Assembly: GCA_965368975.1 (NCBI GenBank)
Contig: CBDUPA010000038.1
Location: forward strand, 1 to 29,745
Reading direction: 5' to 3'
Length of the DNA: 29,745 nucleotides
Source of the DNA: an uncultured bacterium
GTDB lineage: Bacteria; Acidobacteriota; Thermoanaerobaculia; Multivoradales; JAHZIX01
Position numbers and translations under genes: made by a program
Shown here: one piece after another, positions 3,057 through 29,690 of the stretch
Position numbering within the stretch: position 1 is the stretch's first letter
Layout of the letters: every line of letters starts with the position of its first letter
The notes under the pieces: generated by a model
Told to the model about the DNA's origin: nothing
Database searches by the model: none
The model's input: the letters and a program-made list of their open reading frames with translations, nothing else

Positions 3057-3767
3057 TTACGGAGCACTGGCTGGGGACCGGACGCGCTCTACGGCCACGG
3101 ACATCGTCATCGGGTCGACCACGACCACGACATCGCCCGGCTTGAGGCGATCCAATGCCGCCACAGCAGGTTCTGGTAGCTCCGGCCGAACCGGGACGCC
3201 AGCCAGATCTACCCGCACCGTGCCGTTGGCCGGACCATCCTCGTCCAGATCGCCCCCATCAACCACGCGTGCACCCCATGCACCTTCGACTCCTCGCGAC
3301 ACCAGAACGTGAACGCGGCCTCGAGGAATGTCCATGCTCGCCCCTTCGCTCTCGAGGGGAGCAAGCTCTAGCCATCGCAAGGGGTAGCCGTCGGGCGAAG
3401 TCACCGCTACATCGCCCTGGCGATCGATCGCGACCCAGATCGAACGCCAAGGTAACCCGTCCTCCAGCACCAACTCGACCTGACCGTCGCGGTCGTCGTC
3501 GTGAAGCACGTGGAGCTCTTGATGGCGCACGGAGTAGTCGCCTTGCGGGAGGTGAGCCACCTCCTGCAGCAGGACTTCCGAGCCAGGAGTCACTCCGGAC
3601 ACCTCGACCGTCGTCGACGTCAAGGTGATCTCCGGCAGCGGCGCACCTCCCTGGGCAAAGAGCCCGCAAGGCAGCAGCGCAAGGAGCAGCAGGGAGCTAC
3701 CTGTGCCACGCAGCGAGGCAATCGAGGTAGCCGGGCGGGAGCGGAATCGGTGTAGTGTCAACATCAC
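3057..3767 (-). CDS. Hypothetical exported protein (~236 aa), upstream of and co-oriented with the Rhs gene
   Basis: Natural-looking composition with a basic N-terminus, hydrophobic stretch (SSLLLLALLPCGLFAQ) and beta-rich body with acidic loops (HDDDRDG, DGGDLDEDG). It ends 109 bp before the Rhs start. The start could be GTG 3767 or ATG 3764. Confidence 0.75.
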   Translation of the reverse strand: MMLTLHRFRSRPATSIASLRGTGSSLLLLALLPCGLFAQGGAPLPEITLTSTTVEVSGVTPGSEVLLQEVAHLPQGDYSVRHQELHVLHDDDRDGQVELVLEDGLPWRSIWVAIDRQGDVAVTSPDGYPLRWLELAPLESEGASMDIPRGRVHVLVSRGVEGAWGARVVDGGDLDEDGPANGTVRVDLAGVPVRPELPEPAVAALDRLKPGDVVVVVDPMTMSVAVERVRSPASAP

Positions 3768-4443: not shown

Positions 4444-7400
4444 ATGACTAGGCCTGACTCTCCGAGTATCGAATCCGTTGGTCCCTACAAGCTAGAAGAG
4501 AGGCTCGGTGCTGGCGGTATGGGGGAAGTGTACCGCGCCTGGGACACTGAGCTCGAGCGAGCTGTCGCCATCAAGCTGATCCTCGCCGAACAGACAGCGA
4601 GCCCGCAGATGCAGGAGCGATTCCGGCGCGAGGCCAAAGCTATCGCTCGGCTGGATCATCCGACGATCGTGCGCATTCACCACATCCAGAAGTGGCACGA
4701 TCACCACTGCATCGTCATGGAGCTGGTAGAAGGCAAGACACTGTCCCAACTCCTCAAGCGTGGTGGACCGATGCTGCCCGAGCAAGTGATCCCCTTACTG
4801 CGACAGATCGCCTCCGGCCTCACGGCTGCCCATGCGGAGAGCATCGTGCATCGCGATCTCAAGCCCGCCAATGTGATCGTGACACCAACGGGGCAAGCCA
4901 AGATCTTGGACTTCGGCATCGCCAAGCGAGTAGCAGGGCACGACGAATCGATCTCGGCTCCAGGCACCATCCTCGGTACCCTCCACACCATGTCGCCCGA
5001 ACAGGCCACGGGCCGGCCGGTCGATGGTCGCTCCGATCTCTTCTCCCTCGGTGCCCTGGCCTACGAACTGCTCACCGGCAACTCTCCCTTCCGTGGCGAC
5101 ACTCCCCAAGAAACCCTGGCCCGCGTGATCAGTCACCGGCCCCCTCAGGTTCGAGAGTTCGCCTTCAACGTGCCGGAAAGCCTCTCGCAGCTTATCGACC
5201 AGCTCTTGGAGAAGAATCCGGATCGACGCCCGTCGAGCGCCGTCGAGGTCGTAGCGACGTTAGATCGATGGACCAATGCCTCACCGGCCAGCCTCTCCGC
5301 TCTACCACCCAGGCGGCCGTCAGTTACCGAAGACTTAGGCCCCACCCTGGAGTACGGAGCCAACGCATCCGGGAATTCGAAGCCGGCCCCTGCCAGTCAG
5401 GCTCCGACAGCCCCCGACGCTGACGCCACCGACGGCGAGGCCGTTCCTGCGCCCCGTCACCGTCGCTGGATCGCCGCGGCTGTGGCCCTGGTGCTGCTGG
5501 CCACGATTACCGCGGCTGTATTCTGGTGGCTGCAACCCCCGCCCACCTACACTGTCGCCGTCCTGGGTATCGCCTTCGAGTCCGCAGATGAGGACACCAC
5601 CGACGCCTGGATCGGCACCGCCCTGTCAGAAGTCTTGACCCACCGCCTGCGCGCGCACCCCCAGCTGCGTGCCTTGCCCGGCGACCACGCCGCGCAGTTG
5701 CGCCGCGCAGCTGGCTCCCTGGAACCCAACCGCACCAGCCTCGCGGACTTGCGGAAGAACCTGCATCTTGGCATCGCCGATTTTGCCGTCACGGGGGTGT
5801 TGGAGGAAGACGACGGTGCCTTCAAGGTAGAACTAACGGTCCGAGATCTGCGGCGCGGCGAGGAGTACTCTCAGGACTTCGATGGACTGGTGTCGGTACT
5901 TCAGCCATTCTCGAAGCGAGTGAGCCTGGAGCTCGAAGAATGGATCGGCGTCGAGGACGTCCCGGATGAGGCGATGGATACCTGGGCGGGGCTCTTGCCA
6001 GCCAATGCAGAAGCGCTGCGTTTGTACACCGAAGGTTTGCGAGCCTGGAGAGCCGGTGACCTGATCGAGGCACGCGAGCGCATCGAGGATGCGCTCGTGG
6101 TAGCTCCGGAAGATCCCGCGTTGCACAACGCTCACGCTCTGATTCTTTGGGACTCTGGCTACCAAGAAACGGCAGCCACCGCAGCTAACAGAACTCTGGA
6201 GAACCTCGAGCTAGTCGGTTCTACCGCCCGCCTTCAGTTCAAATCCGAGTCTCATGCAGTCTTGAAGAACTGGATCAACGCGGCAGAGAGCTTTCGGCAG
6301 CTCCATGCTCTGCATCAAGACGAGTTCAACTTCGGCTTGCGGCGCGCTACGGCCTTGGCACATGACTTCGAGTCGGCAACCGCACTAGAGTTGCTACAGA
6401 AGCTGAGAGAGAAAGTTCCTTCACATGGTGAAGGTAGTTCAGTGCTCCTTGGTCATATCGATGTTTCTGAGTCTGCAGTTCGATATGACGAGAAGAAATT
6501 TGAGTCGGCCAAAGTCCTAGCTTCCCAGGCTTTGGTAGTCGGCAGAAGGACCCAGGCTCCGTGGCTCGAAGCTGATGCTCTGTTCGCCAAAGCAAAAGCT
6601 CTTGAACGAATAAGCGAACTAGACCAAGCACTAGCAGATCTCGATCGAGCTGAACAGCTCTATCGCCAGATGGGCAACCAGCGCGGCATGCTCAACTGTG
6701 CCATTCAGTACGCCATTGTTCTCAACAGCGCGGGTCGCCCACAGGAAGCACAGCAGCGCTTTGCTGTCTATCGCAGGTTCTTCGAGGAGCGAAACAATCC
6801 CTTGTACGTGGCAATTGTGAGTGTCAACCAAGCCAATACTCTGATCGACCTGGGTGAGTTGATTCAGGCACAAAACTTACTAGAGCAATCCGTTCAGACG
6901 TTTCGAGAGCATAACGAAATCAATTTTGAACTTGCAGCTTCAGAGTCGAATTTGGCGACAAGCTACCATGAGTCTGGTAACCTCCAACGAGCTCTGTACG
7001 GCTATAAGAAAGCAGAGACTTTGTTTCGTGAACTCGGTGAGGTCGACAGCCTATCAATTACCTTGACGAATATTGGTGAAGTACTGCTGTTGCAAGGAGA
7101 GCTCAAGGACGCACAGCAAAACTTCCGCAGTGCCTTAGACTTCGACAAAACCACGGAGGCAAGAGCCTACAACCTTCGACTCCTGGCAGAAGTTTCTTTC
7201 CTGCAAGCCGATCAACGGGCAACGGGGAATTTTCTCCTTGAGGCATCGGAACTGCAAACCGAAAACGAAATCCACCTAGCCCATACTCAGGTACAACAAG
7301 CTAGACTCGCCTTAGAGAAGCACAACCCCGGTGAAGCGGAAGCACTTGCCAAGGAGGCCGAGCAGCGCTTCTTGAATGCTGGGGAAAACGATTCTGTCAC

Positions 7401-7800
7401 TCTCGCCCAGATCGTCCGTACTTTGGCACTGCTCAACCGAAGACTGCCGGACATCGAAAGCGCCCGGGAACTCAACGGCCAGATTCAGCTTCAGGCTTCC
7501 AGCAGCCAGAAGCGCAGCCCTCGTTTTCAAGCTACTCTCCTGGACGCACAGGTTCGCGCCCGTGAGCAGGACGCTCAACTGCCAGAGTTGCGTAACCAAC
7601 TGCTCGACTTGGCTCTCCGCTCGGAAGCCGACGGCTACGCCCTCGACGCCCACCGCGCCCGGCTGGCACTGGGCGAGTTCGAGCTAGAACTGGGCGACGA
7701 AGCTGCAGGCCAAGCCCGGCTCGAAAAGCTGCGCGCCGAAGCGGCGTCGCGCGGCTGGATCTTGTTCGAAGAGCAGGCGGCGCGCCGCCTCGGGCGTTGA
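4444..7800 (+). CDS. Membrane-anchored Hanks-type Ser/Thr protein kinase with extracytoplasmic TolB-N-like and TPR region
   Basis: All catalytic motifs are present: LGAGGMGEVY, VAIK, RFRREA, HRDLKPAN, DFG, MSPEQ, RSDLFSLG. A Pro/Ala linker leads to a TM helix (WIAAAVALVLLATITAAVFWWL, ~5467-5532), then a VAVL motif and TPR-like helices (SNLATSYHESGNLQRALYGYKKA, TNIGEVLLLQGELKDAQQNFRSAL). ATG 4444 is preferred over TTG 4420. Confidence 0.93.
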   Translation: MTRPDSPSIESVGPYKLEERLGAGGMGEVYRAWDTELERAVAIKLILAEQTASPQMQERFRREAKAIARLDHPTIVRIHHIQKWHDHHCIVMELVEGKTLSQLLKRGGPMLPEQVIPLLRQIASGLTAAHAESIVHRDLKPANVIVTPTGQAKILDFGIAKRVAGHDESISAPGTILGTLHTMSPEQATGRPVDGRSDLFSLGALAYELLTGNSPFRGDTPQETLARVISHRPPQVREFAFNVPESLSQLIDQLLEKNPDRRPSSAVEVVATLDRWTNASPASLSALPPRRPSVTEDLGPTLEYGANASGNSKPAPASQAPTAPDADATDGEAVPAPRHRRWIAAAVALVLLATITAAVFWWLQPPPTYTVAVLGIAFESADEDTTDAWIGTALSEVLTHRLRAHPQLRALPGDHAAQLRRAAGSLEPNRTSLADLRKNLHLGIADFAVTGVLEEDDGAFKVELTVRDLRRGEEYSQDFDGLVSVLQPFSKRVSLELEEWIGVEDVPDEAMDTWAGLLPANAEALRLYTEGLRAWRAGDLIEARERIEDALVVAPEDPALHNAHALILWDSGYQETAATAANRTLENLELVGSTARLQFKSESHAVLKNWINAAESFRQLHALHQDEFNFGLRRATALAHDFESATALELLQKLREKVPSHGEGSSVLLGHIDVSESAVRYDEKKFESAKVLASQALVVGRRTQAPWLEADALFAKAKALERISELDQALADLDRAEQLYRQMGNQRGMLNCAIQYAIVLNSAGRPQEAQQRFAVYRRFFEERNNPLYVAIVSVNQANTLIDLGELIQAQNLLEQSVQTFREHNEINFELAASESNLATSYHESGNLQRALYGYKKAETLFRELGEVDSLSITLTNIGEVLLLQGELKDAQQNFRSALDFDKTTEARAYNLRLLAEVSFLQADQRATGNFLLEASELQTENEIHLAHTQVQQARLALEKHNPGEAEALAKEAEQRFLNAGENDSVTLAQIVRTLALLNRRLPDIESARELNGQIQLQASSSQKRSPRFQATLLDAQVRAREQDAQLPELRNQLLDLALRSEADGYALDAHRARLALGEFELELGDEAAGQARLEKLRAEAASRGWILFEEQAARRLGR

Positions 7801-7812
7801 CGACGCGCCGCC
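7776..7812. terminator. GC-rich hairpin at the convergence of the kinase and the paralog stub
   Basis: GGCGGCGCG (7776-7784) and CGCGCCGCC (7804-7812) form a perfect 9-bp inverted repeat spanning the kinase stop codon. Confidence 0.45.
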
Positions 7813-7822
7813 CGCGTTTCCC

Positions 7823-8093
7823 TCACATCGGTTCGGGATAGACGCCAGACCACTTGGAAAGACTATTGCTTTCGTAGTCGTCCGCGAGCAGGCTATTGCT
7901 AGCCGGCGCGTTCGTTTCCAGAGCTTCTGGCAAACGCAAGTCCAGCCCAGCGCCCGACGCATCTTCGCCAACCAGTGGCGTGTACTCCGCCCAGGCGACA
8001 TTGCCGCGATTGTCAACGGCTTGCAGATAGTAGGCCAGCCCAGCGCCCGGTACGATCCCGAGTTCGCCTTCCCAGCGACCAGAGGTCTCGTTG
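7823..8093 (-). pseudogene. C-terminal remnant of a paralog of the giant surface protein
   Basis: NETSGRWEGELG...YYLQAVDNRGNVAW...GLDLRLPEALE...LLADDYESNSLSKWSGVYP aligns by eye with the giant protein's SEESGRWEGYLP...YFLQAVDKKGNVSF...GIDLGLPNPVE...LLSDDFEGRDLSKWTAVHP. Homology begins at the IS left end. Confidence 0.88.
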
Positions 8094-8155
8094 TGACCTT
8101 GCCCGGGTTTGGCGGACACCTATGAAAGGCGCGAGAATGCGCCATGGAGGTGTCG

Positions 8156-8464
8156 ATGCCGAAGAGGAAACGCCGTACGTTTACAACGGAAGAGAAGGCT
8201 GAAGCGGTGAGATTGGTCCAGAGTAGTGGTCGCAGCGTCTACCGTGTAGCTCAGGACTTAGATCTGACTGAGACAGCGCTTCGGCGCTGGGTGCAGCAGG
8301 CCAAGGTCGATGCAGGTGAAGGCTCCGCAGGTGAGCTGACGAGTGATGAGCGCGAGGAGCTGCGCAAGCTACGGCGCGAGAATCGGCGCCTGCGCATGGA
8401 GCGTGACTTCTTAAAAGAAGCCACGGCCTTCTTCGCCCGCGACAGCTCGAGCTTGCCAGAGTGA
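8156..8464 (+). CDS. IS3-family transposase OrfA (HTH plus leucine-zipper-like coil)
   Basis: RRTFTTEEKAEAVRLV...VAQDLDLTETALRRWV...ELRKLRRENRRLRMERDFLKEATAFF. GGAGG at 8146-8150 precedes ATG 8156. Confidence 0.92.
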   Translation: MPKRKRRTFTTEEKAEAVRLVQSSGRSVYRVAQDLDLTETALRRWVQQAKVDAGEGSAGELTSDEREELRKLRRENRRLRMERDFLKEATAFFARDSSSLPE

Positions 8465-9444
8465 TCGAGTCGAAGAAGGCCCAATATCCGGTGACCCAGA
8501 TGTGCCGTCTTCTCGGTGTCTCTCGTAGTGGCTACTACGCTTGGCTCTCTCGTGGACAGAGCGGCCGAGAGCAGGCAGCACGTCGACTGCTGGATCAGGT
8601 GCGTCAAGCCCACCGTGCCAGTGACGGGACCTACGGCAGCCCGCGGGTGCACGAGTCGCTGAAGCGACAAGGCCTGCTGGCTGGTCGACACCGTGTTGCA
8701 CGATTGATGCGTGAAGATGGACTGGTCGGTCGTCCGAAGCGGCGCTACCGCCAGACAACAGACTCGAGGCACGACCAGCCCGTTGCTCCTAATGTGCTGT
8801 CACGGGCCTTTCAGGCTGACGAACCCAATCGAACTTGGGTCGGCGACATCACCTACATTCAGACCGCTGAGGGCTGGCTCTACCTGGCGGTCTTGCTCGA
8901 CGTGTACTCGCGTCGTGTCGTGGGCTGGTCGATGGGTCAGGATCTCAAGGCTGACCTGGCCCTGGGTGCTCTGGAGATGGCTCTGGGGCGTCGCCACGTC
9001 GAGCCCGGCCTGCTGCACCACACAGACCGGGGCAGCCAGTATGCGAGCCACCGCTACCAGAAAGCTCTGAGTAAGGCTCGCATGATCTGCAGCATGAGTC
9101 GCAGCGGCGATTGTTGGGATAATGCCGTGGCTGAGAGTTTCTTCGGGACGCTCAAGACCGAGTTGGTCCACCGAAGCTCGTGGCAGACTCGCCAGGAGGC
9201 TCGCTCGGATCTCTATGCCTACATTGAGGGCTTCTACAACCGCCAGCGGATCCACTCGGCGCTGGGCTACCAGAGTCCAGCGGAATTCGAGGCATCGGCG
9301 AAGAAGCCTATGGAAACTGCCGTGCCCTCGGAAATCGCTGCGCGATTCCCGCCGTCACTTGGAAAACGCTGCGCGTTTCCCACAGTTCCCACAGGCACTG
9401 CTCCTGTAGGTATATTGATGAAGGAAAGAATGGTTACGACTTAG
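8461..9444 (+). CDS. IS3-family transposase OrfB (rve/DDE integrase core)
   Basis: GVSRSGYY, YGSPRV and the DDE motifs WVGDITY, HTDRGSQY, DNAVAESFF, plus YNRQRIHSALGYQSP. It lies in the -1 frame relative to orfA, with a GTGA start/stop overlap at 8461-8464. Confidence 0.95.
   Translation: MIESKKAQYPVTQMCRLLGVSRSGYYAWLSRGQSGREQAARRLLDQVRQAHRASDGTYGSPRVHESLKRQGLLAGRHRVARLMREDGLVGRPKRRYRQTTDSRHDQPVAPNVLSRAFQADEPNRTWVGDITYIQTAEGWLYLAVLLDVYSRRVVGWSMGQDLKADLALGALEMALGRRHVEPGLLHHTDRGSQYASHRYQKALSKARMICSMSRSGDCWDNAVAESFFGTLKTELVHRSSWQTRQEARSDLYAYIEGFYNRQRIHSALGYQSPAEFEASAKKPMETAVPSEIAARFPPSLGKRCAFPTVPTGTAPVGILMKERMVTT
9306..9396. repeat. Multi-branched inverted-repeat element inside the IS 3' end
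   Basis: Outer arms GCCTATGGAAACTG (9306-9319) and CAGTTCCCACAGGC (9383-9396) enclose two similar hairpins, GGAAATCGCTGCGCGATTCC (9330-9349) and GGAAAACGCTGCGCGTTTCC (9361-9380). Confidence 0.75.
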
Positions 9445-9474
9445 GAACTGTGTCCACTGATCCGGGCAAGCTCA

Positions 9475-9829
9475 CCACACGCTCCCCCACCCCGCGAAGC
9501 CGCAGCTTCATCTGCGCCCCCGCCCCCGGCTCGACCCAGCCCGGCACCTGGACATCCAACGCCTCGATCCCCCGCTCCAACAGCCGTCCAACCACCAGCA
9601 ACTCACCCTGCCCAAACGCCCCATCTCCGTCGAAATCCACCCAGACATCCAGTTCCACCCCCGGCTCCCCATCCCAACTCACCGCCAGTTTGCCCATCTC
9701 CCCAGGCACCAGTTCTCCCACCCAGGTAGTCGACAACCCATCGATCGTCTGTGCACTCGCTGCCGCTCCCACCAACGTAGCCAACAGAATGCAGAATGTA
9801 AATCGAATAGCCAAGGTGAAACGTTCCAT
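9475..9829 (-). pseudogene. N-terminal remnant (signal peptide plus GEVED-like domain) of a paralog of the giant surface protein, cut by IS3
   Basis: AAGGAG lies 6 nt before ATG 9829; MERFTLAIRFTFCILLATLVGAAASA is signal-like. WVGELVPGEMGKLAVSWDGEPGVELDVWVDFDGDGAFG...MKLRLRG matches the giant protein's WMDDVVPGETARLLVGWRGQPGTQLDLWADFDGDGAFG...LRFRLRG. The frame then runs into the IS right IR and stops at 9434. Confidence 0.88.
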
Positions 9830-9895
9830 CTCCATCTCCTTACAAATAGCCGGGATAGGCAAGCCCACGGCAATTCAACCGATCCTCGGAACAAT

Positions 9896-9935
9896 AGGGC
9901 GGCACGACGCCTCGGGCTTGACGCCGCGCCGCCCT
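9896..9935 (-). terminator. Probable intrinsic terminator/hairpin after the giant gene
   Basis: Minus-strand RNA AGGGCGGCGCG...CGUGCCGCCCU forms an 11-bp stem with one G-U pair, followed by AUUGUU. It starts 17 nt after the stop codon. Confidence 0.55.
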
Positions 9936-9952
9936 GTCCCCTCCAAATCGGG

Positions 9953-21900: not shown

Positions 21901-24900
21901 AGGTCACCGTCACGGTATTGGTCAACGTGCCGGTGGCATTCGAGGCCAGCGTGCACTCGACCTCGTAGCTCACCGTGGTGCCGGCGGGCATCGCCAATGT
22001 TTCAGAGAGACTCGCGCCGGAGCCAGCACCGTAGCCAGACGCTCCACCTGAACCGTTACTCGTCCAGGAGCAATCCTGCAAGACTGCTGGGAAGTTGTCC
22101 GAGACAGTGACGGTAGGCGCATCACTAGGGCCATCGTTGGTCACTTGAATGGTGTACGCAACGACCTCACCAGCGACCACTTGTGGAACACCGTTGCCCT
22201 TCGTCACGCTGAGATCGGCACTCCGGGTCACGTTCACCGTCGCGGCATCCGAGTTCGCCCTGGGGCCCGGATCCTCGGCCGTGGAAACCGTCGCGGTCGT
22301 GGTCAGGCTTCCGAATGCGCTCGATGCCACTGAGCATGTGCCGGTATAGGTCGCGGTACTTCCCACCGGTAGGCTCAGCGGCGCGGGTAGGATCGTTCCG
22401 TTGCCAGATGCACCGTTGGTCGTCGTGCTCGACCAACTGCAGCTGAGTTCGGAGGGCACGGATACGCCAAGCGTCACCGACGCGGCATCGAGGGGACCGT
22501 CGTTGCCGGCCACAACGGTGTACGTCAGGTTCTCACCCGCCGCCACCTCACTGACCGAACTATCGTTGGTCACCCAGACATCTGAGCCGCGCGAGATTTC
22601 ATCCGAATCGGTAGCGGAATTGTCGCCTGCATTGGGATCACCCTGCACCGTCGCAATCGCAGTATTGATCAAGGTGCCCGTAGCACTTGGCTCCACCGTA
22701 CAAGAGATCTGGTACTGAGCCGAGCTACCAGCCGGCATCACCAGGCTCTCGTCTAGCGCAGTTCCGGACCCGGAAGTGCCGCCCGTCGCGCCTCCACTCA
22801 GAGTCGGAGCCCCCCAGGAACAGCCCGTCAACTTGGTTGAGAAGGAATCTGCCAAGGCCACAGAGGCAGCATCACTCGGGCCGTTGTTGGTGACCTGCAC
22901 GGTGTACGTGACCGGTTGACTCGCCACCACACCGTCGCCGCCACTACTCTTGGTCACCGCAACGTCCGGCTGCTGTGAGATCGAATCCGTATCGGTGGCA
23001 GCCTTCGGGCTGTCTGGGTCGCTGGCCGCGGTCACGGTTACCGTGGTGACCAAGCTACCCGTGGCACTCGAGGCGAGCGTGCACGTGACCTCATAAGTCA
23101 CGGTGCTAGTCGCGGGCATCGACACCGTCTGAGAGAGAGTGGCACCTGAACCGTCAGTGTAGCCCGCTGCACCTCCCGAACCACTACTGGTCCAGCCGCA
23201 CCCTTGCAAGACAGCCGGCAGATTGTCTACCACTGAGACGGAGGGGGCGTTTCCAGAACCACTGTTGGAGAGCCCGATGGTGTAGACCACCGTTTCTCCA
23301 GCTACCACAGTATCCACGCCATTGCTCTTGGTCACCGAGATGTTGGAGGGTGGTGAGATCGGCGTGATGTCCGTCGCGGTGTTGTTGCTAGCGTCCAGAT
23401 CCAAACCGTCGAGTGCGTCCACGGCGGCTGTGTTTGTCACATCTCCGGTGGCAGACAGGACCACCGTGCACGAGATCTCGTAGTCCACTTGGCTCCCGGC
23501 CGCCATCTCCAGCTTCTGAAGCAGTCTTAGGCCCGAACCGGAGGTTGCACCTAGAACGCCAGCACCAGGATCAGCTACCCAAGAGCACTCTTCGAGTTCG
23601 GCAGGAAACCGATCACCTACCGCCACCGACGATGCGGCGTCGGGCCCGTTATTGATAACAGTGACGTCGTAGGTAATCGGTTGACCAGGATTGACTTGGG
23701 TCTCCCGTCCCGCCTTCGTTACGGAGATGTCCGCTTCTCCAAGGGGCGCGATCGTGTGACTCGCAGAGTCGGAGGACACCAAGTCTTGGCCAGAAGTTAC
23801 CAAGGCAGTGTTGGTGATCGAGCCTGGCGCCACGAGGGGAACAGAACAGTTGACGTCATAGGTCACTGTGCCTGCACCGCCCAAGGTGAGGTCGTCTTCA
23901 AGTAGAGAGCCGCTGCCGTTGCTATAGCCCGATGAGTTCGTGCCAGCACTCGTCCAGTTGCACGTCAAACCGCCAGGAAACGAGTCGGTTACCGTCACGA
24001 GTGCCTGGTCCAACGACTCATTCGTGACCGAGATCCCGTAATCCAGCGAACCTCCGGCAGTCGCAGTAGTGGTTGGACTCATCTTACTAACGAATACCTC
24101 AAGGGTCGGACATTTCTCACCAACCCTTTGACTGAGCGATTCCAGAAGGTTCGCAGCCCCGCGCAAGACACCACTGGTAGACCTCGAACGAGTCTCTGCT
24201 TCACCTTGCCAACCTGGTGGGGCCCAGACTTCACCGCTCCAACGAGCCACAAGCCAAGGCGGATCGACACGCTCCGAAGCTGCCGACAGGACAGCTCCAA
24301 CGGCATACAAGGTCTGGCGCCCCTGGTGCTCCACCACAACCAAGTTCTCAACTCGGCTCACATCCGGGAACTCCGTGCCCTGCCACCACGCACCGTTCCA
24401 TCTCGCCAACCCCTGCACCTCGACGGCGCCTGCACGACTCAGGTCACCGCCGACGTACAGTGCCGAGCCGCTGCCATCATCATGAACGGCTGAACTCCAC
24501 ACGCGACCATCGACACCTTGCGCCAGGCTGGTCCAAGACGTACCGTCCCACTTCGCGAGATTCTCCACCGAGGCATCACCAGCACGAGAGAAGCGACCAC
24601 CCGCGTAGAGAGCAGGGCCAGTCCCATCGTCGAATACCGCCAGTGCGTGTACCCAGCCGTCGGTGCCCATGCCCACGTGTTGCCAGTCGGTACCGTCCCA
24701 CCTGGCGATGTTCCTAGCTCTTGTTGGGGTGTGGAAAGAACCTGCGGCGTATAGAGTAGCTCCCCGACCGTCGTCGAAGATTGCCAGTGCCGAAACGACG
24801 CCGTCGATTCCGCTGCCCAGCGGGCTCCAGTCCACACCGTCCCACATGACAACACCCTTGGCCTCGAGCTGCCCAACCGTCGCGAACGTACCACCCACAT

Positions 24901-25594
24901 AGAGCCGGGTTGAAGCCTCGTCCTGCTGGATCGCAAGGGCCAGGACGGAGCCTGCCGGGCTCGTCTCGAACGGGCTCCAGGCACCCTCCGTCCAGCTGAG
25001 GAGTTCAGCTGCCGTCTGGGTTTCCAAGCTTCGAGCAGGCGCCGGAACAGCTGCGAAAGCCTGAAGAGCATCTCCCTCACCGGCAATCGCGATGACCGGC
25101 ACAATTTCACAAGGGTCCCTAGCCTCGCGTACCTCTCGCTCACCCGACCGCTGTTGCCCGTCATCGCCGCGCAGCCGGAAGCGCAATCGCATCACTCCAT
25201 CCGCGAGTGCCGTATCCGGCACCGGAATCTCCAGGACGTGCAGTGAGCGTCGATCTAAGCGGCTGCGACCGGTGTCGTCCTCAACCACATTGCCCAGAGA
25301 GAATCCGGAGAGGACCTCCTCGGGTCCCCCAAACGCACCATCTCCGTCGAAGTCCGCCCAGAGATCGAGCTGTGTGCCTGGCTGCCCCCGCCAGCCGACC
25401 AAGAGACGGGCCGTCTCCCCAGGGACGACATCGTCCATCCAATGCAGGGTCACACCTTCGAGAGACCAGTCTTCGCTCGACAGCCCCTCGTCCGCCTGGA
25501 CAGTCACAGCGGCGGCGGCTCCCAACAGAATAAATCCCGCCACCAGAAATCGAAGACACAATCCATCCACCACACCCAGAGCAAGGCGTCCCAT
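9953..25594 (-). CDS. Giant exported protein (~5,213 aa): signal peptide, GEVED-like domain, beta-propeller, ~31 DUF11 repeats, peptidase C25-like (clan CD) domain, C-terminal DDFE..DLSKW tail
   Basis: Uninterrupted ORF with GGAGG RBS before ATG 25594 and signal-like FLVAGFILLGAAAAVTVQA. LWADFDGDGAF...MRLRFRL is GEVED-like (~25170-25460). LYxGGxF...ARWDGxxW blades span ~24190-25010. Repeats DxxVxK...Y.I.V.N.GPSDA...C.W...Y...C...NTA...D....NN span ~12430-24106. LMLVGDDRIVP, GRL, LNGHATH, AVGCHGG, YIANSGFGWG and LYGFP span ~11040-12430. Confidence 0.95.
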   Translation of the reverse strand: MGRLALGVVDGLCLRFLVAGFILLGAAAAVTVQADEGLSSEDWSLEGVTLHWMDDVVPGETARLLVGWRGQPGTQLDLWADFDGDGAFGGPEEVLSGFSLGNVVEDDTGRSRLDRRSLHVLEIPVPDTALADGVMRLRFRLRGDDGQQRSGEREVREARDPCEIVPVIAIAGEGDALQAFAAVPAPARSLETQTAAELLSWTEGAWSPFETSPAGSVLALAIQQDEASTRLYVGGTFATVGQLEAKGVVMWDGVDWSPLGSGIDGVVSALAIFDDGRGATLYAAGSFHTPTRARNIARWDGTDWQHVGMGTDGWVHALAVFDDGTGPALYAGGRFSRAGDASVENLAKWDGTSWTSLAQGVDGRVWSSAVHDDGSGSALYVGGDLSRAGAVEVQGLARWNGAWWQGTEFPDVSRVENLVVVEHQGRQTLYAVGAVLSAASERVDPPWLVARWSGEVWAPPGWQGEAETRSRSTSGVLRGAANLLESLSQRVGEKCPTLEVFVSKMSPTTTATAGGSLDYGISVTNESLDQALVTVTDSFPGGLTCNWTSAGTNSSGYSNGSGSLLEDDLTLGGAGTVTYDVNCSVPLVAPGSITNTALVTSGQDLVSSDSASHTIAPLGEADISVTKAGRETQVNPGQPITYDVTVINNGPDAASSVAVGDRFPAELEECSWVADPGAGVLGATSGSGLRLLQKLEMAAGSQVDYEISCTVVLSATGDVTNTAAVDALDGLDLDASNNTATDITPISPPSNISVTKSNGVDTVVAGETVVYTIGLSNSGSGNAPSVSVVDNLPAVLQGCGWTSSGSGGAAGYTDGSGATLSQTVSMPATSTVTYEVTCTLASSATGSLVTTVTVTAASDPDSPKAATDTDSISQQPDVAVTKSSGGDGVVASQPVTYTVQVTNNGPSDAASVALADSFSTKLTGCSWGAPTLSGGATGGTSGSGTALDESLVMPAGSSAQYQISCTVEPSATGTLINTAIATVQGDPNAGDNSATDSDEISRGSDVWVTNDSSVSEVAAGENLTYTVVAGNDGPLDAASVTLGVSVPSELSCSWSSTTTNGASGNGTILPAPLSLPVGSTATYTGTCSVASSAFGSLTTTATVSTAEDPGPRANSDAATVNVTRSADLSVTKGNGVPQVVAGEVVAYTIQVTNDGPSDAPTVTVSDNFPAVLQDCSWTSNGSGGASGYGAGSGASLSETLAMPAGTTVSYEVECTLASNATGTLTNTVTVTSVSDPASPKTATDSDPIVQEADVQVTKTSGGDGVVASQPVTYTVQVTNNGPSDASAVNLTDTFSSELTGCSWGAPVQSGGATGGTLGSGAALNQVLVMPVGSSARYQIACTVNPSATGTLTNTASISALGGSWTDSDTDTDSISQRPDIVVTKTNGGDGVVAGQPVTYSIQVRNLGPSDASSLEVTDNFPSDLENCSWTCSGLPLASGCTGGTGSSLSADLAMPVGSMATYLVTCNVKSTARGTLSNSVTATAQGDPDTGNNSATDSDATSWGSDVWVTNSSSTSTVAAGESLIYTVVVGNDGPVDAASVTLNLSLPSELSCGWERGGNAATLPAMLSLSVGSTATYTGTCSVAASAFGNLTTTATVSTAEDPGPKANSDAATVNVTRSANLTVTKDDGVTQVTAGDELTYTIEVVNTGPSDAPVVNVEDSFPAVLQGCGWTGSGTGGAANYTSNAGPASSLSDLSVSMPAGSKVTYEVTCTLDSSATGALTNTATVTSDSDPASPKTAQDSDSIVQDAQVSVTKSSGGNGVLASQPLTYTVTVANPGPSDATSVSLTDTFASALTGCGWAVPAQSGGATGGSAGTNASALNQTLSMPAGSSVQYQITCTVDPSATGTLTNTASISALGGSVTDSATDTDAISQYTDIQVTKTIGVDVPVAGKPVSYVVEVRNLGPSDAASVSLIDNLPSDQLKNCTWSRTDFANATGSNESGSGFTFSETLSLAVGGFVEYEFTCTVLADATGFLENTASATFTVDPDTSNNSAEVSDEIGQDADISVTKTNHRDGVVASESVTYEIVVSNAGPSDATSVILTDTLSPQLENCTWSGEGSAGTSINEDIPAVETGGVSVNAELVMPVDSTVTYTIDCTVKAGARGQVTNTVNVTSLGDPDTDFNEASDTDDILWGSDVSVQLSSTAGAVIAGESVTYTFVVGNDGPLDADSVQLDVELPADLSSCTWETVPGDGSPGTATTLPTPFSLAVGSTATYTGSCLVASGAPGSLTTKAMVTTGEDSDTSNNSDSETVTVTREFDVGVTVFNGVDSVIAGTSSSYTVEVTNNGPSDADTVTLTMSASSDLTCSWSNPSTFSVSAGSTVSYTGTCVLSSSATGEVTVGAVLMAAGDSSSSNNSDSDTDTVAYEADIEVRKSNERGQLTAGEVFTYGITVENHGPSDAPEVALEDEVPPELSCTWTSVPSGGATGNGFVLPATLTMPAGSSVFYIGACTLASDATGTVTNTATVTSSIPDPDPSNNSSTDTDDITQGADVSVVKTSGATFVTAGDDVGYTITVTNKGPSDVAEVRVQDDFPSVVGNCSWTVMVSGGATGASNGSGQQLLQALDMPAGSSATYSVGCTLASWATGNLSNTASISLGGDLDPTNDSSTHDDMIVQSSDLGVSLTTDPSTAIAGDPLVYTLRATNHGASDDPSVTLAASLASELTGCSWTNTATDDPAGSGAALSVTLAVPASTSVTYEAECSVPAGATGSLISDATVTASNPDSVVTNNTSQLTTPIEQQSDLVVSVDTVEAEVVAGETVTYRINVNNDGPSDAASVTLLHTLPTDLTGCTVNGAPYDGPTGQEVVLAADLQLPVSSSVTYNVACTLAADAIGELVYLAKAQIEGDGASDPDESNNTVTKKDTIVARADVSVTKSNGQPTVTAGRSVSYDIEVTNDGPSNASVLLEDPLPSELETCSWSQVLTGGATVDANSPPANLTMPANSTVTYTVSCTLASNATGTLVNTATITLSNDLDDQDNKATDSDPIEQLSELVVTKGRNGGDPLAGNQVVYNIKVKNDGPSDAPSVELTDDLPSELNSCNWNFSLQGSATTSGAALPATLSLPAGDSVTYTGTCQLAANASGTLRNVAMVTVTSGENPVDNTAEDTATIEQRSDVSVSKMGPASVAAGEDVTYSVKLKNDGPSDANSVRLTDTFPGDLNGCRWEPTEILGGVTTPVVGAGSSLDVTLSMPANSSVTYDITCTVSAAAMGTLDNTATVSATGDSTPDNNTATHRLTIQESADLSVSKTLSPDSVVVAGKKVSYTIVATNNGPSDTQAVLSDQLPNDLSGCTWSSSAVGGATGNDSSLPATLSMPAGSSVTYDGTCDLAPSARGQLINTAKLTGTDDDPNLGDETSTTDHSIAVQPDVAVVVNQRSSSIAGAAISYEVTATNHGPGDADAVTLTATLPSPLIGCIWSSSTEPVVSSPLDVTLALSVGSSVTYTAECSLPSSATGIYTVSANVNTSGDPNGSNDFSQLDSQIQVVPNVSVTKGNGLDEVVAGSDITYTIEIINNGPSDAAAVTVADTLPTQLSDCAWTSLAEGSASGNDPGPIEVSELDATLLMPLGSKVTYWVTCTVQANAMGNLVNNVTVTAAGSPDPIVAQHQDDDPIVEGSDLVVSLSHSPADSHAPAEVIAGETVTHTLVVTNGGPSDASSVTLTSDLPPDGEECTWSIVAPDSVGEERDTTSSTLATQLSLPAGTEITFSGLCNVESGTTGSFEYFARAEVDRDPQPGNNEDTNSFTVVRQSDLAIELSNGVTEVKAGEDVTYTLDVRNLGPSDTTGASLTYDFPNQLTGCDWESDVLVDTVTGNTTTSGTSLNEVLDLAADSHVTYRITCRIDPEAAPGSLGNVARINATNTDPDSSNNRAEDTDTLLRRADLGVDLELTDPTGEVVAGGEVSYELKVVNEGPSDAFDVTLIDQAAAQEKTCSWQLVSQDGVSALQPDSTALRATFAIQEGGELHYRVNCTLDAAATGTVVHQATVEVDPEDIDPDLTDNTDTVESALKVAPDIEVTLTNGVDEIVAGKSVSYTLTVTNHGPSDALGIELSDQRPSQLDCDWQSDPVAGVTGNAAGSGLSLVANLDMLANTSVIYELDCELSSTANGILVYAAEAKFDGDPAPGNNYSEDKDQVIRESDLEVTLDDGNDYTVAGTQVVYALTVENRGPSDVASALLTTTLAPELTSCTWGAPSGSDFTVEQDEGGRDLRVYVSMLADGVVRYAITCSLADGAEGTVVSSALIDGQHDLNPDNNEDSDVNAIVKPADIVVQITSGVDTVAAGGSMIYHLLVSNASVWDAQQVRLHANFTGSEPACRWEATATGEATGFQPVGMGLELQEEVSLPANSSLWYLFSCKVPDVDQGSLVFTAEADSPTDLEPGNNSATHQASIVRPTDVETVILTHFQRMRSQQAASAADLEALQAKLSDFAGHGSVNGVIFDLGYSEDLAALYERWDAGSPDPEEEAARANEVLFGCEPAVCGGKISGIQILLDSVLSLYDLDGNFGFGAQAARANGYLMLVGDDRIVPLARIGDRTLNPSEQDYVSPGGLSALGLTATRTTVGRALADNRYLSDDPLVARGGVKVRRDDLDRKRNFLPLLITGRLLEEPAQIVDSLNRFLELDGKLDLTQRDRRVLVTGYDFLQDSSRRIRNIWRQALAPTQDPASLEPVYGQLIGSTWGYQTVGERSNILLQHMSGFGQGAYGIISLNGHATHYQEGVPGDDFDDIQGLNTAAIDAGLDLYGSVLYAVGCHGGLPVPDRGATTLDRPWDLAQTYLDRGALVYIANSGFGWGLKNSVGYSERLVEIFTEELTSASELTVGQAVHSAKYRYFDEDAEEFDAYDVKTSLQWTLYGFPMTTIITGIADSATEAAIAKNLIGVTAAEEEPVETTEPNLLVAATQFSIKGDLAYAKYTASGEQIPLLTVCPPPADGEPAGCYYTLNGGATSAADLPVEPVLRWDTRVSNTSQHGVLWKGGKYTEESNWTPVFARLVSNGGELDPGSLPRKIMIRPRGGSRPGSLFGQDDCRATDTAINQLSLIPAELHDEGNGLLTHRLYRDVSIETFYFRGAEADDNCDREGPLFEDADSYHEVHDSTVRWSVPVTDEDSEVWRVVVVYDDEANQEWKAIDLTFSEESGRWEGYLPLSPTDGWDTLTYFLQAVDKKGNVSFFEFQDAGKAAGPSGIDLGLPNPVELDMPSVSPLLSDDFEGRDLSKWTAVHP
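12430..24106 (-). repeat. Array of ~31 tandem ~125-aa DUF11 (TIGR01451-type) Ig-like domains
   Basis: 31 units counted by eye from the 'DxxVx(K/L/V/N)...N.GP.DA' starts, most with two Cys. Some units remain closely similar at DNA level (e.g. ~20736-20894 vs ~22221-22379). Confidence 0.88.
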
Positions 25595-25688
25595 GTAGAC
25601 CTCCAGAGCCAATTTTATGCAAAGATGCACATATTGATAATGCATTTCCCCAAACAAATTACATAAAATAAGAACAGCAGAGTCCTTA

Positions 25689-25705
25689 GGCAAGCAACAT
25701 GCCAA
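25689..25705 (-). promoter_or_regulatory. Sigma-54 (-24/-12) promoter of the giant gene
   Basis: Minus strand reads TTGGCATGTTGCTTGCC (GG-N10-GC, TTGC at -12), ~95 bp upstream of ATG 25594 and adjacent to a sigma-54 activator gene. Confidence 0.8.
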
Positions 25706-25754
25706 CGTCGATGAGGCATCTCTTCAAGGACTTTTCCCATCGCAAGAGCAGCAC

Positions 25755-25806
25755 CATCGTCCGTCATTCCGCACCTGAACCGTCTCAAACCGTCCGACGG
25801 ACGATG
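25755..25806. promoter_or_regulatory. Candidate upstream activator sequence (enhancer)
   Basis: A perfect 11-bp inverted repeat, CATCGTCCGTC (25755-25765) / GACGGACGATG (25796-25806), encloses CTGAACCGTCTCAAACCGTCC. It lies ~50-100 bp upstream of the -24 element, and a related motif recurs at the second sigma-54 promoter. Confidence 0.6.
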
Positions 25807-25891
25807 CAAGACGAGTCTCGGGCGAGACGTCACATCAGCGACATTTTTTGGAAGTGCTGGCTATGTATACTGCTAAACTTTGTCGATGGGC

Positions 25892-27457
25892 ATGAAAGAC
25901 ACCGTCACCCGGCCAGCCCCTTCCAGGAACCCAGGCACACCGGCACCCACAGCTTCGGCACTGACCGTTCTCAGCCACCCAGATCCTGCTCGAGTGGGCG
26001 AGAAGTACGTCCTGACCGATTTGCTCGGTGGAAAGAACGTCAAACTGTGTCGCACGGCTCCGTTCTTCTCCGGGCCCACCAGTGGCTCAGCACGACCGCT
26101 AGAGGACCCTCACCTGAGTCGCCGACCGTTGCTGTTGAGTCCATTGCAGCAGAACGGAGTGCGTATCGACGCGAGTGAAAGCTCGATGACTCTGTTCGTG
26201 AATGGCGAACCGCTGGCGAGTCGGCGAGACTTGCCTACCGAGATGCTGGCGCAGGGCGTCGTGCTGCTCTTGGCCGGCCAGATCGCCTTGGTGCTACAGA
26301 ATACGGTGCTCGAACCTCCCCTATCCTGCGCCCCCGAGATCGTCGGTGAGAGTGCCTCGATCTTGCAGCTACGTCGCGAGATCCAGCGCATCGCGGATCT
26401 CGACTTCCAGGTGCTACTGCGCGGAGAAAGCGGTACTGGCAAAGAACTGGCCGCACGCGCAATTCACGACTCAGGACCGCGCCGAGACAGTCCCTTCCTG
26501 GCCTTGAACATGGGCGCCTTGCCACGCGAACTTGCGGCGGCCGAGTTGTTCGGCGCCGTCAAGGGGGCCTATACGGGGGCGGGCCGCACACGCCCTGGCT
26601 ACTTTCAACAGGCCTCGGGCGGCACTCTGTTTCTGGACGAAATCGGCGAAGCCTCGCCCGAGGTCCAGGTCCTGCTCTTGCGAGCGTTAGAAACCGGACA
26701 GGTCCAGCGCGTGGGCAGTAGCGCGGTCGAAGACGTGAACGTACGCGTCATCTCGGCTACCGACGTCGAACTGGAAACGGCCGTCGACAGTGGCACCTTT
26801 CGCCTTCCGCTCTTGCATCGCCTCGCCGGCTATGAACTCTTCTTGCCACCGCTACGCGACCGCCGAGAGGATTTTGGGCGACTGTTCTTTCGCTTCTTGG
26901 GCCAGGAACTTCGCCGTATAGGCGACGCTGAGCGTCTGGTGCCAGCTTCTGGGCAGAAGCCCTGGATCGATGCCGAGTTACTCAGTCAGCTGGCTCTCCT
27001 TCCCTGGCCCGGCAATGTGCGGCAGCTCAAGAACGTGGTGCGTCAACTGGTGGTCGCGAGCCGTGGCTCGGACAGAATACAGATTCCCAAGGGTGTCGAG
27101 CGCCTGCTGACTCCTGCTGCCACGACTAGCGTGGATTCGCCCAGAACAGAGGCCTCAATCGCAGTAGAGACGTCCTTGCGTCGAGCTGAAGAGGTGAGCG
27201 ACGACGAACTGTTGACCGCTCTGCGCAGTGAGAACTTCATCGTCAGCCGTGCAGCACGGCGTCTCGGTGTATCGAAAACGGCCCTGTACAAACGAATGGA
27301 CCAGTGTCCGCGGGTTCGCAAAGCCTCGGAACTCGACGTCAGCGAGATCGAGGCCACTGTGCAGCAGTTCCCCGGTGATCCCCGAGCCATGGCACTCGCA
27401 CTCGAGGTGTCTCCCCGGGGACTCCGATTGCGCATGGGTGAGTTGGGCCTGCTCTAA
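25892..27457 (+). CDS. Sigma-54-dependent transcriptional activator (bEBP) with degenerate FHA-like N-terminus and two C-terminal HTH-like motifs
   Basis: GESGTGKE (Walker A), ELFGAVKGAYTGA, GTLFLDEIGE (Walker B), RVISAT, LPPLRDRRED, WPGNVRQL. N-terminal LCR...DPHLSRR...FVNGE is FHA-like. The C-terminus has VSRAARRLGVSKTALYKRM and PRAMALALEVSPRGLRLRM. The start is uncertain (25880/25886/25892). Confidence 0.92.
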   Translation: MKDTVTRPAPSRNPGTPAPTASALTVLSHPDPARVGEKYVLTDLLGGKNVKLCRTAPFFSGPTSGSARPLEDPHLSRRPLLLSPLQQNGVRIDASESSMTLFVNGEPLASRRDLPTEMLAQGVVLLLAGQIALVLQNTVLEPPLSCAPEIVGESASILQLRREIQRIADLDFQVLLRGESGTGKELAARAIHDSGPRRDSPFLALNMGALPRELAAAELFGAVKGAYTGAGRTRPGYFQQASGGTLFLDEIGEASPEVQVLLLRALETGQVQRVGSSAVEDVNVRVISATDVELETAVDSGTFRLPLLHRLAGYELFLPPLRDRREDFGRLFFRFLGQELRRIGDAERLVPASGQKPWIDAELLSQLALLPWPGNVRQLKNVVRQLVVASRGSDRIQIPKGVERLLTPAATTSVDSPRTEASIAVETSLRRAEEVSDDELLTALRSENFIVSRAARRLGVSKTALYKRMDQCPRVRKASELDVSEIEATVQQFPGDPRAMALALEVSPRGLRLRMGELGLL

Positions 27458-27550
27458 GGCCTGCCAGAACTGAGCTAGTCTTCCAGCGATCAGCGGTTCG
27501 TTCGATCGCTCCTGGTCCGCAATCGCATCGCTCCCGAGGAACCTCTTCTC

Positions 27551-27818
27551 CTACACCACCGTTTCCACCTCGAGGACGCCGGCAAGCAAGAAGAGAAGAC
27601 TCGGTGCGCTGCTCGACTCCGTCGACGTTGACACTGCTGGCTGAGCCAGAACAGGGCGAGCAAACTCGCCCAGAAAGTGTCGATCCGGAGAGTGTTGATC
27701 CGACCAGTGTCTGTCCGCTGGAAGCCGCGGGATCTCTTGGATTGCCTGGGTGCTCGCACCACAGCAATTACAGCGTAGAGATCGCAGTCGCAACCAATCG
27801 AAAATGTACAGGTCTCAT
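27551..27818 (-). pseudogene. Probable decayed exported-protein gene (or a 16-aa small ORF, 27768-27818)
   Basis: AGGAGG (27825-27830) lies 6 nt before ATG 27818, downstream of a consensus sigma-54 promoter. It reads MRPVHFRLVATAISTL then TAA. An adjacent frame continues GASTQAIQEIPRLPADRHWSDQ...RPVLAQ to a stop at 27551. Confidence 0.45.
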
Positions 27819-27909
27819 CAGGTTCCTCCTCTAGTCAGGCCTCTGTCGGCTGGCAAGGACAAGACCACTCAGCTCCCTCCAAGAACCAGCCTCTATGATC
27901 CTTCGCTTC

Positions 27910-27926
27910 AGCAATTGATGTGCCAA
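27910..27926 (-). promoter_or_regulatory. Second sigma-54 (-24/-12) promoter
   Basis: Minus strand reads TTGGCACATCAATTGCT, a near-perfect TGGCAC-N5-TTGCW, ~90 bp upstream of a strong RBS and ATG. Confidence 0.8.
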
Positions 27927-27981: not shown

Positions 27982-28018
27982 GTTCTGGACGGTTGTCTGA
28001 ACCGTCCAGAACTGTCCA
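27982..28018. promoter_or_regulatory. Candidate enhancer: 13-bp perfect inverted repeat
   Basis: GTTCTGGACGGTT (27982-27994) / AACCGTCCAGAAC (28000-28012). It overlaps CTGAACCGTCCAGAACTGTCC, which resembles the motif at 25775. Confidence 0.6.
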
Positions 28019-28805: not shown

Positions 28806-29690
28806 GTAAGTCGCTCGGGTCAGTTGGGCAGCAGGACAGCGCCCGGCCTGTCAATGGCGACTTTGGCTGCAGTCTTCAGGAAGTCAGCTGGCGAGGTGCC
28901 CTTGAGCTTGGCGGTCTCGATGATGCTGTAGAGGATGGCGGTGACCTTGGCTCCGTGCTTGGATCGGTTGCCATAGAAGTTCTTGCGTCCGACGACCGGC
29001 CCCCGCAAGACGCGCTCGGCTGCGTTGTTGTCGAGCGGGACCTGTGGATTCTTGAGAAAGACGGTCAGCCCCTTCCAGTGCTTGAGCATGTAGAGCACGG
29101 CCTTACCGAACGGGCTGCGTCGCAAGCCACCTTGGGCAAAGGCCCACTCTTTGATCGCTTCGATGATGGGTTCGGATCGCTCCTGGCGTAGCTCCAGACG
29201 CAGGGCGCAGGCGTCCTTGTCGCCGGGGAAAGCCCCATCGACCTCCTTCTCGACCTCATAGAGGTCGTGGATGAGGGTTCGAATCTCCTTGATCGCTGCC
29301 GGGGGACCCTTGGCGTCCTTGAATTTGCGGTCCGCGTGAGCCCAACAGTGAGCGATGCACATGGTTTTCTCAAGGTCGGCCACGATCGGATAGACGACAT
29401 AGCCGTCGACGACCAGCGTACCCTGGAAGCCTCGCAAGATCTTGCGCGCGGTGGCCGCCGACTTGGACCGGGCCAGGTGGTAGGCCGCCACGGTCGGTGA
29501 GGTCAGGCCAAACAATGTCCACTTGGCAGAGCGCTGGTACTTGGTAGCCATCTGCTTCCAGCCGGTTTCATCTACGTGGAGCACCGGCGAGGCGAGCGCT
29601 TCGGTGCACAGCGCCTTCCAGGTCGGCTCGAGGTGCTTGGCCAGGGCGGCATGCTGATCCCACAGGGTTTGCGAGGTCACCGTCAAACCT
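28806..29690 (-). mobile_element. IS66-family element, right portion (interrupted)
   Basis: Contains the tnpC 3' half. GTAAGTCGCTCGGG at 28806, just beyond the tnpC stop, resembles a GTAA-type IS66 terminus. The partner end is not in the window. Confidence 0.7.

Follow-up and report, generated by a model that had tools for sequence, protein, structure and literature searches.

The window analysed here is a contig of 29,745 nt (CBDUPA010000038.1, covered from end to end) from the 7.1-Mb genome of an uncultured member of the Acidobacteriota, and it carries a 15.6-kb gene for a giant secreted protein with a protease domain, a receptor-type Ser/Thr kinase and a sigma-54 activator (bacterial enhancer-binding protein, bEBP). 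The original prediction, made from the nucleotide sequence, had joined these genes into one signalling system, and the layout on which it was built (kinase, one intact and one gutted giant paralogue, sigma-54 promoter and bEBP) is confirmed in the sequence. Comparison across genomes indicates that the conserved unit is the receptor ectodomain together with the giant, and that the arm formed by kinase, bEBP and sigma-54 is the output of one lineage, a distinction that the original prediction had missed. The features central to this locus are given below.

4444-7800, plus strand: receptor Ser/Thr kinase (Hanks kinase, transmembrane helix and ectodomain; Pfam, hydropathy, motifs, alignment A4 and trees)
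7823-8093, minus strand: 3' remnant of the giant paralogue, 46% identical over 89 aa to the giant's C-terminus
8094-9473, plus strand: IS3-type element of 1,380 nt, in the place of the paralogue's lost middle
9474-9829, minus strand: 5' remnant of the paralogue (signal peptide and GEVED-like domain, E 0.002), 36% identical over 100 aa to the giant's N-terminus
9953-25594, minus strand: giant secreted protein of 5,213 aa (Pfam and sequence features)
9956-11005, minus strand: conserved C-terminal domain behind the protease (alignment A5, 69 rows)
11006-12433, minus strand: C25-like (clan CD) protease domain, PF01364 above cut-off
25690-25704, minus strand: sigma-54 promoter of the -24/-12 type, some 110 nt ahead of the giant's ATG
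25755-25806, no strand assigned: candidate enhancer with phased half-sites, GAC(A/G), plus an 11-bp inverted repeat without mismatches
25886-27457, plus strand: bEBP (Sigma54_activat, PF00158, E 7e-57; HTH_8, PF02954)

Giant, receptor and activator

The giant begins with a signal-peptide-like segment, followed by a GEVED-like domain (Pfam E 0.002, below cut-off), a Rax2-like beta-propeller, about 30 DUF11 Ig-like stretches (Pfam), the C25-like protease, the C-terminal domain and a DFE-type tail. On the excised protease domain, Peptidase_C25 (PF01364) scored 32.1 bits against a gathering cut-off of 23, and an Atlas search with the domain had a C25 cluster as its top match, at 0.92; a PDB profile search found no meaningful relative. 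This match bears out the His/Cys clan-CD-like protease originally proposed, as does a visible dyad, His4706 (codon 11477-11479) and Cys4746 (codon 11357-11359), which is retained in 86 of 88 giant relatives. Judging from its sequence, the enzyme is probably active. Family scans of the giant found neither Propeptide_C25 nor a type IX secretion tail, and it is not counted as a gingipain proper. For the C-terminal domain there was no Pfam match and no meaningful PDB profile match. C25-like domains are infrequent in the class, Thermoanaerobaculia (15 of 401 genomes with a single-sequence search, 13 of 401 with a profile), the giant family is broad overall (1,691 clusters with E values up to 1e-30) and the domain also occurs in Chloroflexota, Actinomycetota and Holophagae. 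The N-terminal parts of these giants differ (Kelch, FG-GAP, DUF11, beta-helix or OppA-like), while the protease and the C-terminal domain are constant. Their C-terminal tails go by lineage, with IF.DGFE.GD in the order to which the window belongs, YLPLV.R in Chloroflexota and RRRAVRH in others, when compared across L054-L062, L140, L142, L153-L203 and L230-L243 (L numbers denote loci fetched for comparison); these tails are candidate sorting signals.

The tandem arrangement of an intact and a gutted giant gene also holds, as judged from the two remnants, which resemble the two ends of the giant, and a 30-nt GC-rich segment after the stop is common to the intact giant and its paralogue. The element between the remnants has terminal inverted repeats and no target-site duplication, is present as a single copy in the assembly, and is placed in the IS3 family on the basis of an orfA/orfB layout and end sequences that we take to be typical of it.

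The kinase combines a Pkinase domain (E 1.5e-53) with TPRs (Pfam) and has intact catalytic motifs (GAGGMG, VAIK, HRDLKPAN, DFG and SPE). With known anti-phage and conflict systems in view, NCBIfam kinase matches were all below cut-off. Hydropathy places a single transmembrane (TM) helix at 5467-5523, preceded by a basic stretch, and the ectodomain of about 750 aa consists of an alpha/beta N-terminal part and a TPR solenoid, with PDB profile matches to TPR proteins (LGN/Pins, kinesin light chain and AfsR). Because one hydrophobic helix follows the basic stretch, the TPR region would lie outside the cell; the TM Ser/Thr kinase of the original prediction is thus recovered in its motifs and helix, with a predicted external TPR side.

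The bEBP is composed of a Ser/Thr-rich tail, an FHA-fold domain (25940-26329), an AAA+ domain with a GAYTGA loop (in its family, GAYTGA in 17 and GAFTGA in 29 of 73 members) and an extended helix-turn-helix region. The Pfam FHA family matched the N-domain in none of 25 family members. A profile of the domain matched a Chlamydia FHA domain (3gqs, E 5e-4), and a model from 71 sequences, with a predicted local distance difference test (pLDDT) value of 95.1, had the FHA domains of OdhI, ArnA, GarA and CT664 as top Foldseek matches (query template-modelling score of about 0.6); a single-sequence fold reached a pLDDT of 41 only. Across 71 rows, Arg38 is invariant and Ser60 and Arg61 are each kept in at least 90%, positions that bind phosphothreonine in other FHA domains and may do so here. 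By profile and modelled fold, the domain is a divergent FHA domain, so that the FHA-like input domain originally suggested stands, even though Pfam misses it.

Receptor ectodomain and giant across genomes

In the protease tree, the giant of the window falls in a 22-row clade (support 100), which corresponds to 20 distinct loci once ten duplicates and fragments of less than 300 aa are removed. At 16 of these 20 GTDB loci, a gene with an ectodomain of the same family lies alongside the giant, a count that includes the window itself (with the remnant in between), L061 (with a 317-codon gene in between) and L055 (receptor in two frames); a contig end interrupts each of the remaining four (L051, L053, L054 and L141). 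In the L053 genome, the best ectodomain match lies on another contig, where it converges on a fragment that shares 48% identity with a related giant's tail. Among held-out metagenome contigs (protease identity of at least 40%, some perhaps from the same organisms as the GTDB loci), the receptor was present at 8 of 13, and the other five end within 522 nt of the giant. Co-conservation in related genomes, which the original prediction had named as its own check, was therefore found. The receptor-giant pair is wider than the three-gene form, as the bEBP of the giant-linked clade described below occurs at 5 of the 20 loci, compared with 16 for the receptor. Receptor and protease identities correlate (rho 0.81 over 20 pairs, 0 of 5000 permutations, a rho that kinship inflates), and the linkage persists where genes are reordered or inverted, where domains are swapped and where ectodomains have diverged to a mean identity of about 29%. 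Paralogous receptor-giant loci pair between genomes and not inside one genome.

A quick tree of the ectodomains, built without rows below 450 aa, L055, GC10_12857 and duplicates, places the giant-adjacent ones on one side of a branch, 22 versus 23 other rows (Shimodaira-Hasegawa-like approximate likelihood ratio test, SH-aLRT, 99), and a second quick tree reproduced this split except for one second-neighbour CHAT-TPR. The inner domain joined to the giant-adjacent ectodomain varies and can be a kinase of either of two separate clades, TIR, CHAT, EAD1 or, in one case, an unknown domain. His/Cys motifs are visible in the CHAT domains, and the TIR-bearing receptors have a Glu at what we take to be the catalytic position. 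We rejected the view that all members of the ectodomain family serve giants, as a giant was present at none of 19 other top-scoring loci. In one genome, CHAT-TPR genes adjoin giants at L056:5836-8367 and L055:6273-11021, the former behind its own sigma-54 site, and on one contig (L230/L237/L243) a single EAD1-TM-TPR receptor gene stands where two tandem-giant pairs converge.

Outside the receptor clade, 22 of 88 giants adjoin a TM-less double-cyclase STAND-TPR gene and three adjoin other kinases; 15 of the 88 have long flanks and no partner, and 30, counted over all clades, are truncated. The cyclase-STAND partner has two cyclase domains, AAA_16 and TPRs, and is soluble-adenylyl-cyclase-like. 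In this distant branch, the TM helix is absent from the TPR partner in all four cases tested, and the giants have a signal peptide. Of 26 cyclase-STAND matches in five genomes, the best five all adjoin a giant, one of which was newly found. A perfect TGTGA-N6-TCACA sequence, which we take to be a CRP box, lies upstream of five of seven acidobacterial cyclase-branch giants (from four related genomes, two of the five with the partner side truncated); it is found at 0 of 16 receptor-clade giants and 0 of 3 partnerless relatives, with at most 1 in 300 among shuffles. That the cyclase partner is TM-less, and that some giants have no partner, speaks against direct contact between receptor and giant as a universal rule. 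A Chloroflexota giant (L161:5375-11992) has an OppA-like peptide-binding domain ahead of the protease, which is of interest if peptide import connects the giant to the cytoplasmic cyclase-STAND protein.

Kinases, FHA-type activators and sigma-54 promoters

FHA-bEBPs are found near a giant in the window and at L054, L057, L058, L059, L061 and L062. Those of the window, L054, L057, L059 and L062 form one clade among 70 bEBPs (SH-aLRT 97; four genomes, two families), and those of L058 and L061 are other paralogues outside this giant-linked clade. L059/L060 repeats the plan of the window, with a divergent bEBP, a sigma-54 site, two tandem giants and a kinase, and among the loci compared the three-gene form was not seen outside this order. 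All four paralogous FHA-bEBPs of the genome, which also encodes rpoN, lie within 740 nt of a kinase, compared with a kinase within 2 kb for 3 of its 20 other bEBPs and for 5% of random places. A kinase within 2 kb was likewise found at 39 of 60 fetched FHA-bEBP loci, picked from about 100 matches so as to span families. A FastTree built from 159 kinase domains places the kinase of the window in a 51-row clade (support 96) holding 37 of 47 bEBP-adjacent kinases, 5 of the genome's 78 other kinases, all five kinases of giant loci with a bEBP and three of nine from giant loci where none was seen. This linkage and the kinase clade together indicate that kinase and FHA-bEBP make up a module that is general in this order and whose targets vary. 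A second such locus of the genome (C18:59643-73734) has three sigma-54 sites, one of which precedes secreted proteins of 247 and 2,552 aa with tails that are presumably of the IPTL type. In kinase-FHA-bEBP cassettes, the sigma-54 targets are often proteins of 125-190 aa with no signal peptide and a DP-x-I end (L071, L074, L086, L093, L094, L096, L097 and genome C18). An apparent bEBP-kinase fusion at L087:8561-10681, in which the N-terminal half of a bEBP is in frame with the C-terminal half of a TPR kinase, was set aside and reads as a deletion joint or assembly artefact. A bEBP sub-clade with no nearby kinase (L104, L107, L108 and L110) has tails in which F.ERR replaces the Thr motifs.

The sigma-54 promoter predicted before the intact giant is upheld by a score of 13.3, where the 99th percentile of the null is 10.5. 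As for the palindromic element proposed with it, the half-site array at 25755-25806 is a better-supported upstream element than the palindrome with 6-bp arms at 25815-25828. Some 70-110 nt upstream of either sigma-54 site of the window lies a related element. No one palindromic consensus described the enhancers (1-2 of 41), and clusters of at least four half-sites, a measure selected after viewing the data, were found at 27 of 41 versus 8 of 51, weakly at L057, L059 and L061. A search of 25601-25900 for the IHF consensus gave no match. At other loci, giants with a bEBP score 18.7 (L057), 12.8 (L058) and 19.2 (L059), and a Kelch gene that faces the L054 bEBP, its C-terminal part beyond the contig, scores 19.6; the L056 giant has a strict match with no bEBP in view, and L140 scores 8.9. 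Where the receptor has a kinase, TIR or CHAT domain, no bEBP was seen and the start is well placed (start choice failed for L051, L054b, L056 and L142), all seven giants score -0.3 or less, and in the hold-out no receptor-clade giant, L238 included, exceeded 4.8. Promoter type, as predicted from sequence, follows partner type, with sigma-54 sites accompanying bEBPs and CRP boxes accompanying cyclases in some lineages.

The second promoter and the genes towards the contig ends are as follows.

2-3767, minus strand: RHS/YD-repeat gene, truncated by the contig end and divergent from the kinase
27339-27818, minus strand: frame behind the second promoter, with a ribosome-binding site, ATG, 16 codons, an in-frame stop and 142 more codons
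27911-27925, minus strand: second sigma-54 promoter, with a perfect 13-bp inverted repeat at 27982-28012 that is similar to the first candidate enhancer and equally far from its promoter
28820-29686, minus strand: IS66 transposase fragment at the right contig end

The frame at 27339-27818, for which no homologue was found in the genome or the fetched loci, is a short peptide gene or a pseudogene. The RHS gene is preceded by a secreted-looking open reading frame (ORF) of 236 aa, also divergent from the kinase, with no family and no homologue among the fetched loci. No sigma factor was found among the scanned window ORFs, such as the adjacent extracytoplasmic function (ECF) sigma factor of PknS-type kinases. 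The contig, with RHS and IS66 genes at its two ends, is rich in insertion sequences (IS), and its GC content is 61%, compared with about 65% for the large contigs of the genome.

Proposed circuit and comparison with known systems

We think it rather probable that the receptor switches on the giant gene via phosphothreonine, the FHA-bEBP and sigma-54. A protein or peptide would bind the outer TPR solenoid of the single-pass kinase, which, as expected of its family, would dimerise and autophosphorylate; the FHA domain would read phosphothreonine, located either on the kinase or in the Ser/Thr-rich tail of the activator itself, and the AAA+ domain would open the sigma-54 promoter before the 15.6-kb gene. 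The gene would yield a stalked protein that is exported, bears a binding propeller close to its tip and has a clan-CD protease that is probably active. Since members of this ectodomain sub-family were found beside such giants only, the ligand probably concerns the giant or the giant's substrate. A positive loop through a self-made fragment of the giant, a source of the signal that the original prediction had thought possible, is plausible, if on the doubtful side. From the observed parts, motifs, linkage and trees we infer the topology, phosphorylation, activation and ligand of this circuit. The chain from kinase through FHA-bEBP and sigma-54 to giant, as originally proposed, gains support from the recurring three genes, the kinase clade and the giant-specific bEBP clade, and its biochemical and transcriptional side is inferential.

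Several points weigh against the circuit and the pairing behind it. Of 401 genomes, at least 162 have the ectodomain family (a tally with two scored candidates per genome and G218 included) and 13 have giants; giant-adjacent ectodomains sit on long branches, nearest neighbours of receptor and protease agree in just 8 of 20 pairs, and the related genomes compared are not independent. In the FHA domain, the usual His is replaced by Pro and the usual Asn-Gly is missing, and a GarA-like ETT motif occurs in the bEBP tail in 12 of 73 cases, which does not clearly exceed the 10% of shuffled tails. L062 has a bEBP of the giant-linked clade and no sigma-54 site before the giant (-8.2), at the held-out L238 the bEBP and the sigma-54 site are 6 kb from the giant, and two held-out unrelated giants without a bEBP scored 12.2 and 13.9 in a wider, 780-nt search window. 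CRP boxes were found at 0 of 16 Chloroflexota and Actinomycetota giants with cyclase partners, it is not obvious how TIR, CHAT or EAD1 outputs would reach transcription, and the biochemical and expression side of the circuit is a prediction.

It is unlikely, in our view, that the giant is itself the sensor, its variable propellers meeting a foreign cell, phage or polymer and C25 freeing a fragment, which the TPR receptor binds to fire its effector (kinase, TIR NADase, caspase-like CHAT or EAD1 adaptor), with transcription of the giant merely a feedback arm, a logic like that of Toll and Spaetzle. Such a scheme would account for the joining of the same ectodomain to kinases of two unrelated clades, TIR, CHAT or EAD1, for the visible CHAT motifs and the Glu at the presumed TIR catalytic position, and for giants whose N-terminal parts vary around a constant protease and C-terminal domain. 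Effector swaps of this kind mark counter-invader systems, according to the available text of PMC8195603. It fits poorly with the distant branch, where the partner is TM-less (4 of 4) and the giant has a signal peptide, so that direct contact would require import, and with the 15 of 88 long-flanked giants that have no partner; the cleavage site and ligand are also hypothetical. Given that giant-adjacent ectodomains have a clade of their own and that the effector swaps are of an immune type, we keep open, as a rather doubtful possibility, a fuller scheme of this Toll-like kind, in which a variable-propeller giant, a ligand made by its clan-CD protease and a co-evolving TPR receptor with swappable output would be combined with FHA-bEBP/sigma-54 feedback here and with cyclase-STAND and CRP elsewhere.

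Control might instead be post-translational, the ectodomain binding and either restraining or releasing the protease-adhesin at the envelope in the manner of LapD and LapG, and the bEBP being a later, lineage-specific addition. The wider linkage of the receptor (16 of 20 loci) than of the clade bEBP (5 of 20) agrees with this, and these loci often encode a TPR solenoid and a clan-CD protease in the same chain; we nevertheless regard it as quite improbable, since the pairing of sigma-54 with bEBPs and of CRP with cyclases, and the cytoplasmic cyclase-STAND partner, are left unexplained. That the genes are a co-inherited cassette without functional coupling seems more improbable still. Kinases and bEBPs are abundant (85 and 25 in the genome) and travel with their neighbours, the contig is IS-rich with a GC content below that of the genome, the kinase also faces the RHS gene, and two of seven nearby bEBPs (L058 and L061) are unrelated paralogues. 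Against this, the linkage outlasts the rearrangements, domain swaps and divergence described above, paralogous loci pair across genomes rather than within them, and the predicted L053 partner turned up on a separate contig beside a giant-like tail.

The compact set of kinase, FHA-bEBP, enhancer, promoter and target makes the proposed link from Ser/Thr kinase to sigma-54 directly testable in a heterologous host. The giants define a large, unstudied secreted clan-CD family with a dedicated TPR sensor across several phyla and with swapped signalling outputs, accompanied in some lineages by a swap of the matching promoter, and matching receptors with swapped inner parts suggest an undescribed form of sensing and response at the cell surface. 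If the protease indeed makes the ligand, this would be a bacterial extracellular protease-receptor alarm with a logic comparable to animal innate immunity. No description of this gene combination was found in the literature searched, with supplements and most subscription papers outside the search, and 'gingipain' and 'C25' have no occurrences in the main texts of PMC7159879 and PMC8195603, whose supplements could list such a neighbourhood. The locus is real, intact and co-conserved; it builds on a known idea, and its core is possibly new.

Jelsbak, Givskov and Kaiser (2005, PNAS 102:3010) reportedly described FHA-domain sigma-54 enhancer-binding proteins in Myxococcus xanthus and proposed a link to Ser/Thr kinases. 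The window shares with these an FHA-fold input on a sigma-54 AAA+ activator; here, in the Acidobacteriota, the FHA domain is divergent and missed by Pfam, the helix-turn-helix region is extended, and kinase partner, promoter and target lie in one locus, the target being a giant C25 protease-adhesin. The partner of the distant giants has the domains of soluble adenylyl cyclase-like STAND proteins, with what we take to be the ADCY10 architecture; such a protein is absent from the window and replaces the membrane receptor at the loci of those giants. The gingipains and PorU (C25) have in common with the giant the His/Cys dyad, a Pfam match above cut-off and a protease fused to adhesin-like domains, whereas here the protease lies near the C-terminus behind propellers and stalk, with its own C-terminal domain, a receptor gene alongside, no C25 propeptide match and no PDB profile relative. 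Clan-CD autoprocessing domains occur in large surface proteins, as the available text of PMC3482391 describes. In Xanthomonas citri, PknS, a single-pass Hanks kinase with periplasmic TPRs, phosphorylates the ECF sigma factor EcfK and controls the type VI secretion system (available text of PMC13147305). On that account, a TPR receptor kinase switches on a costly surface machine through transcription in both cases, and in the window an FHA-bEBP with sigma-54 would act as the reader, the ectodomain belongs to a longer, different family and the target is a protease. Finally, multicellular bacteria have effector-swapping conflict systems with effector-associated domains (EADs; main texts of PMC7159879 and PMC8195603), in which, as here, kinase, TIR, caspase-like and EAD1 modules are interchangeable on a constant sensor; in the system of the window and its relatives, that sensor is predicted to lie outside the membrane and is paired with a secreted protease.

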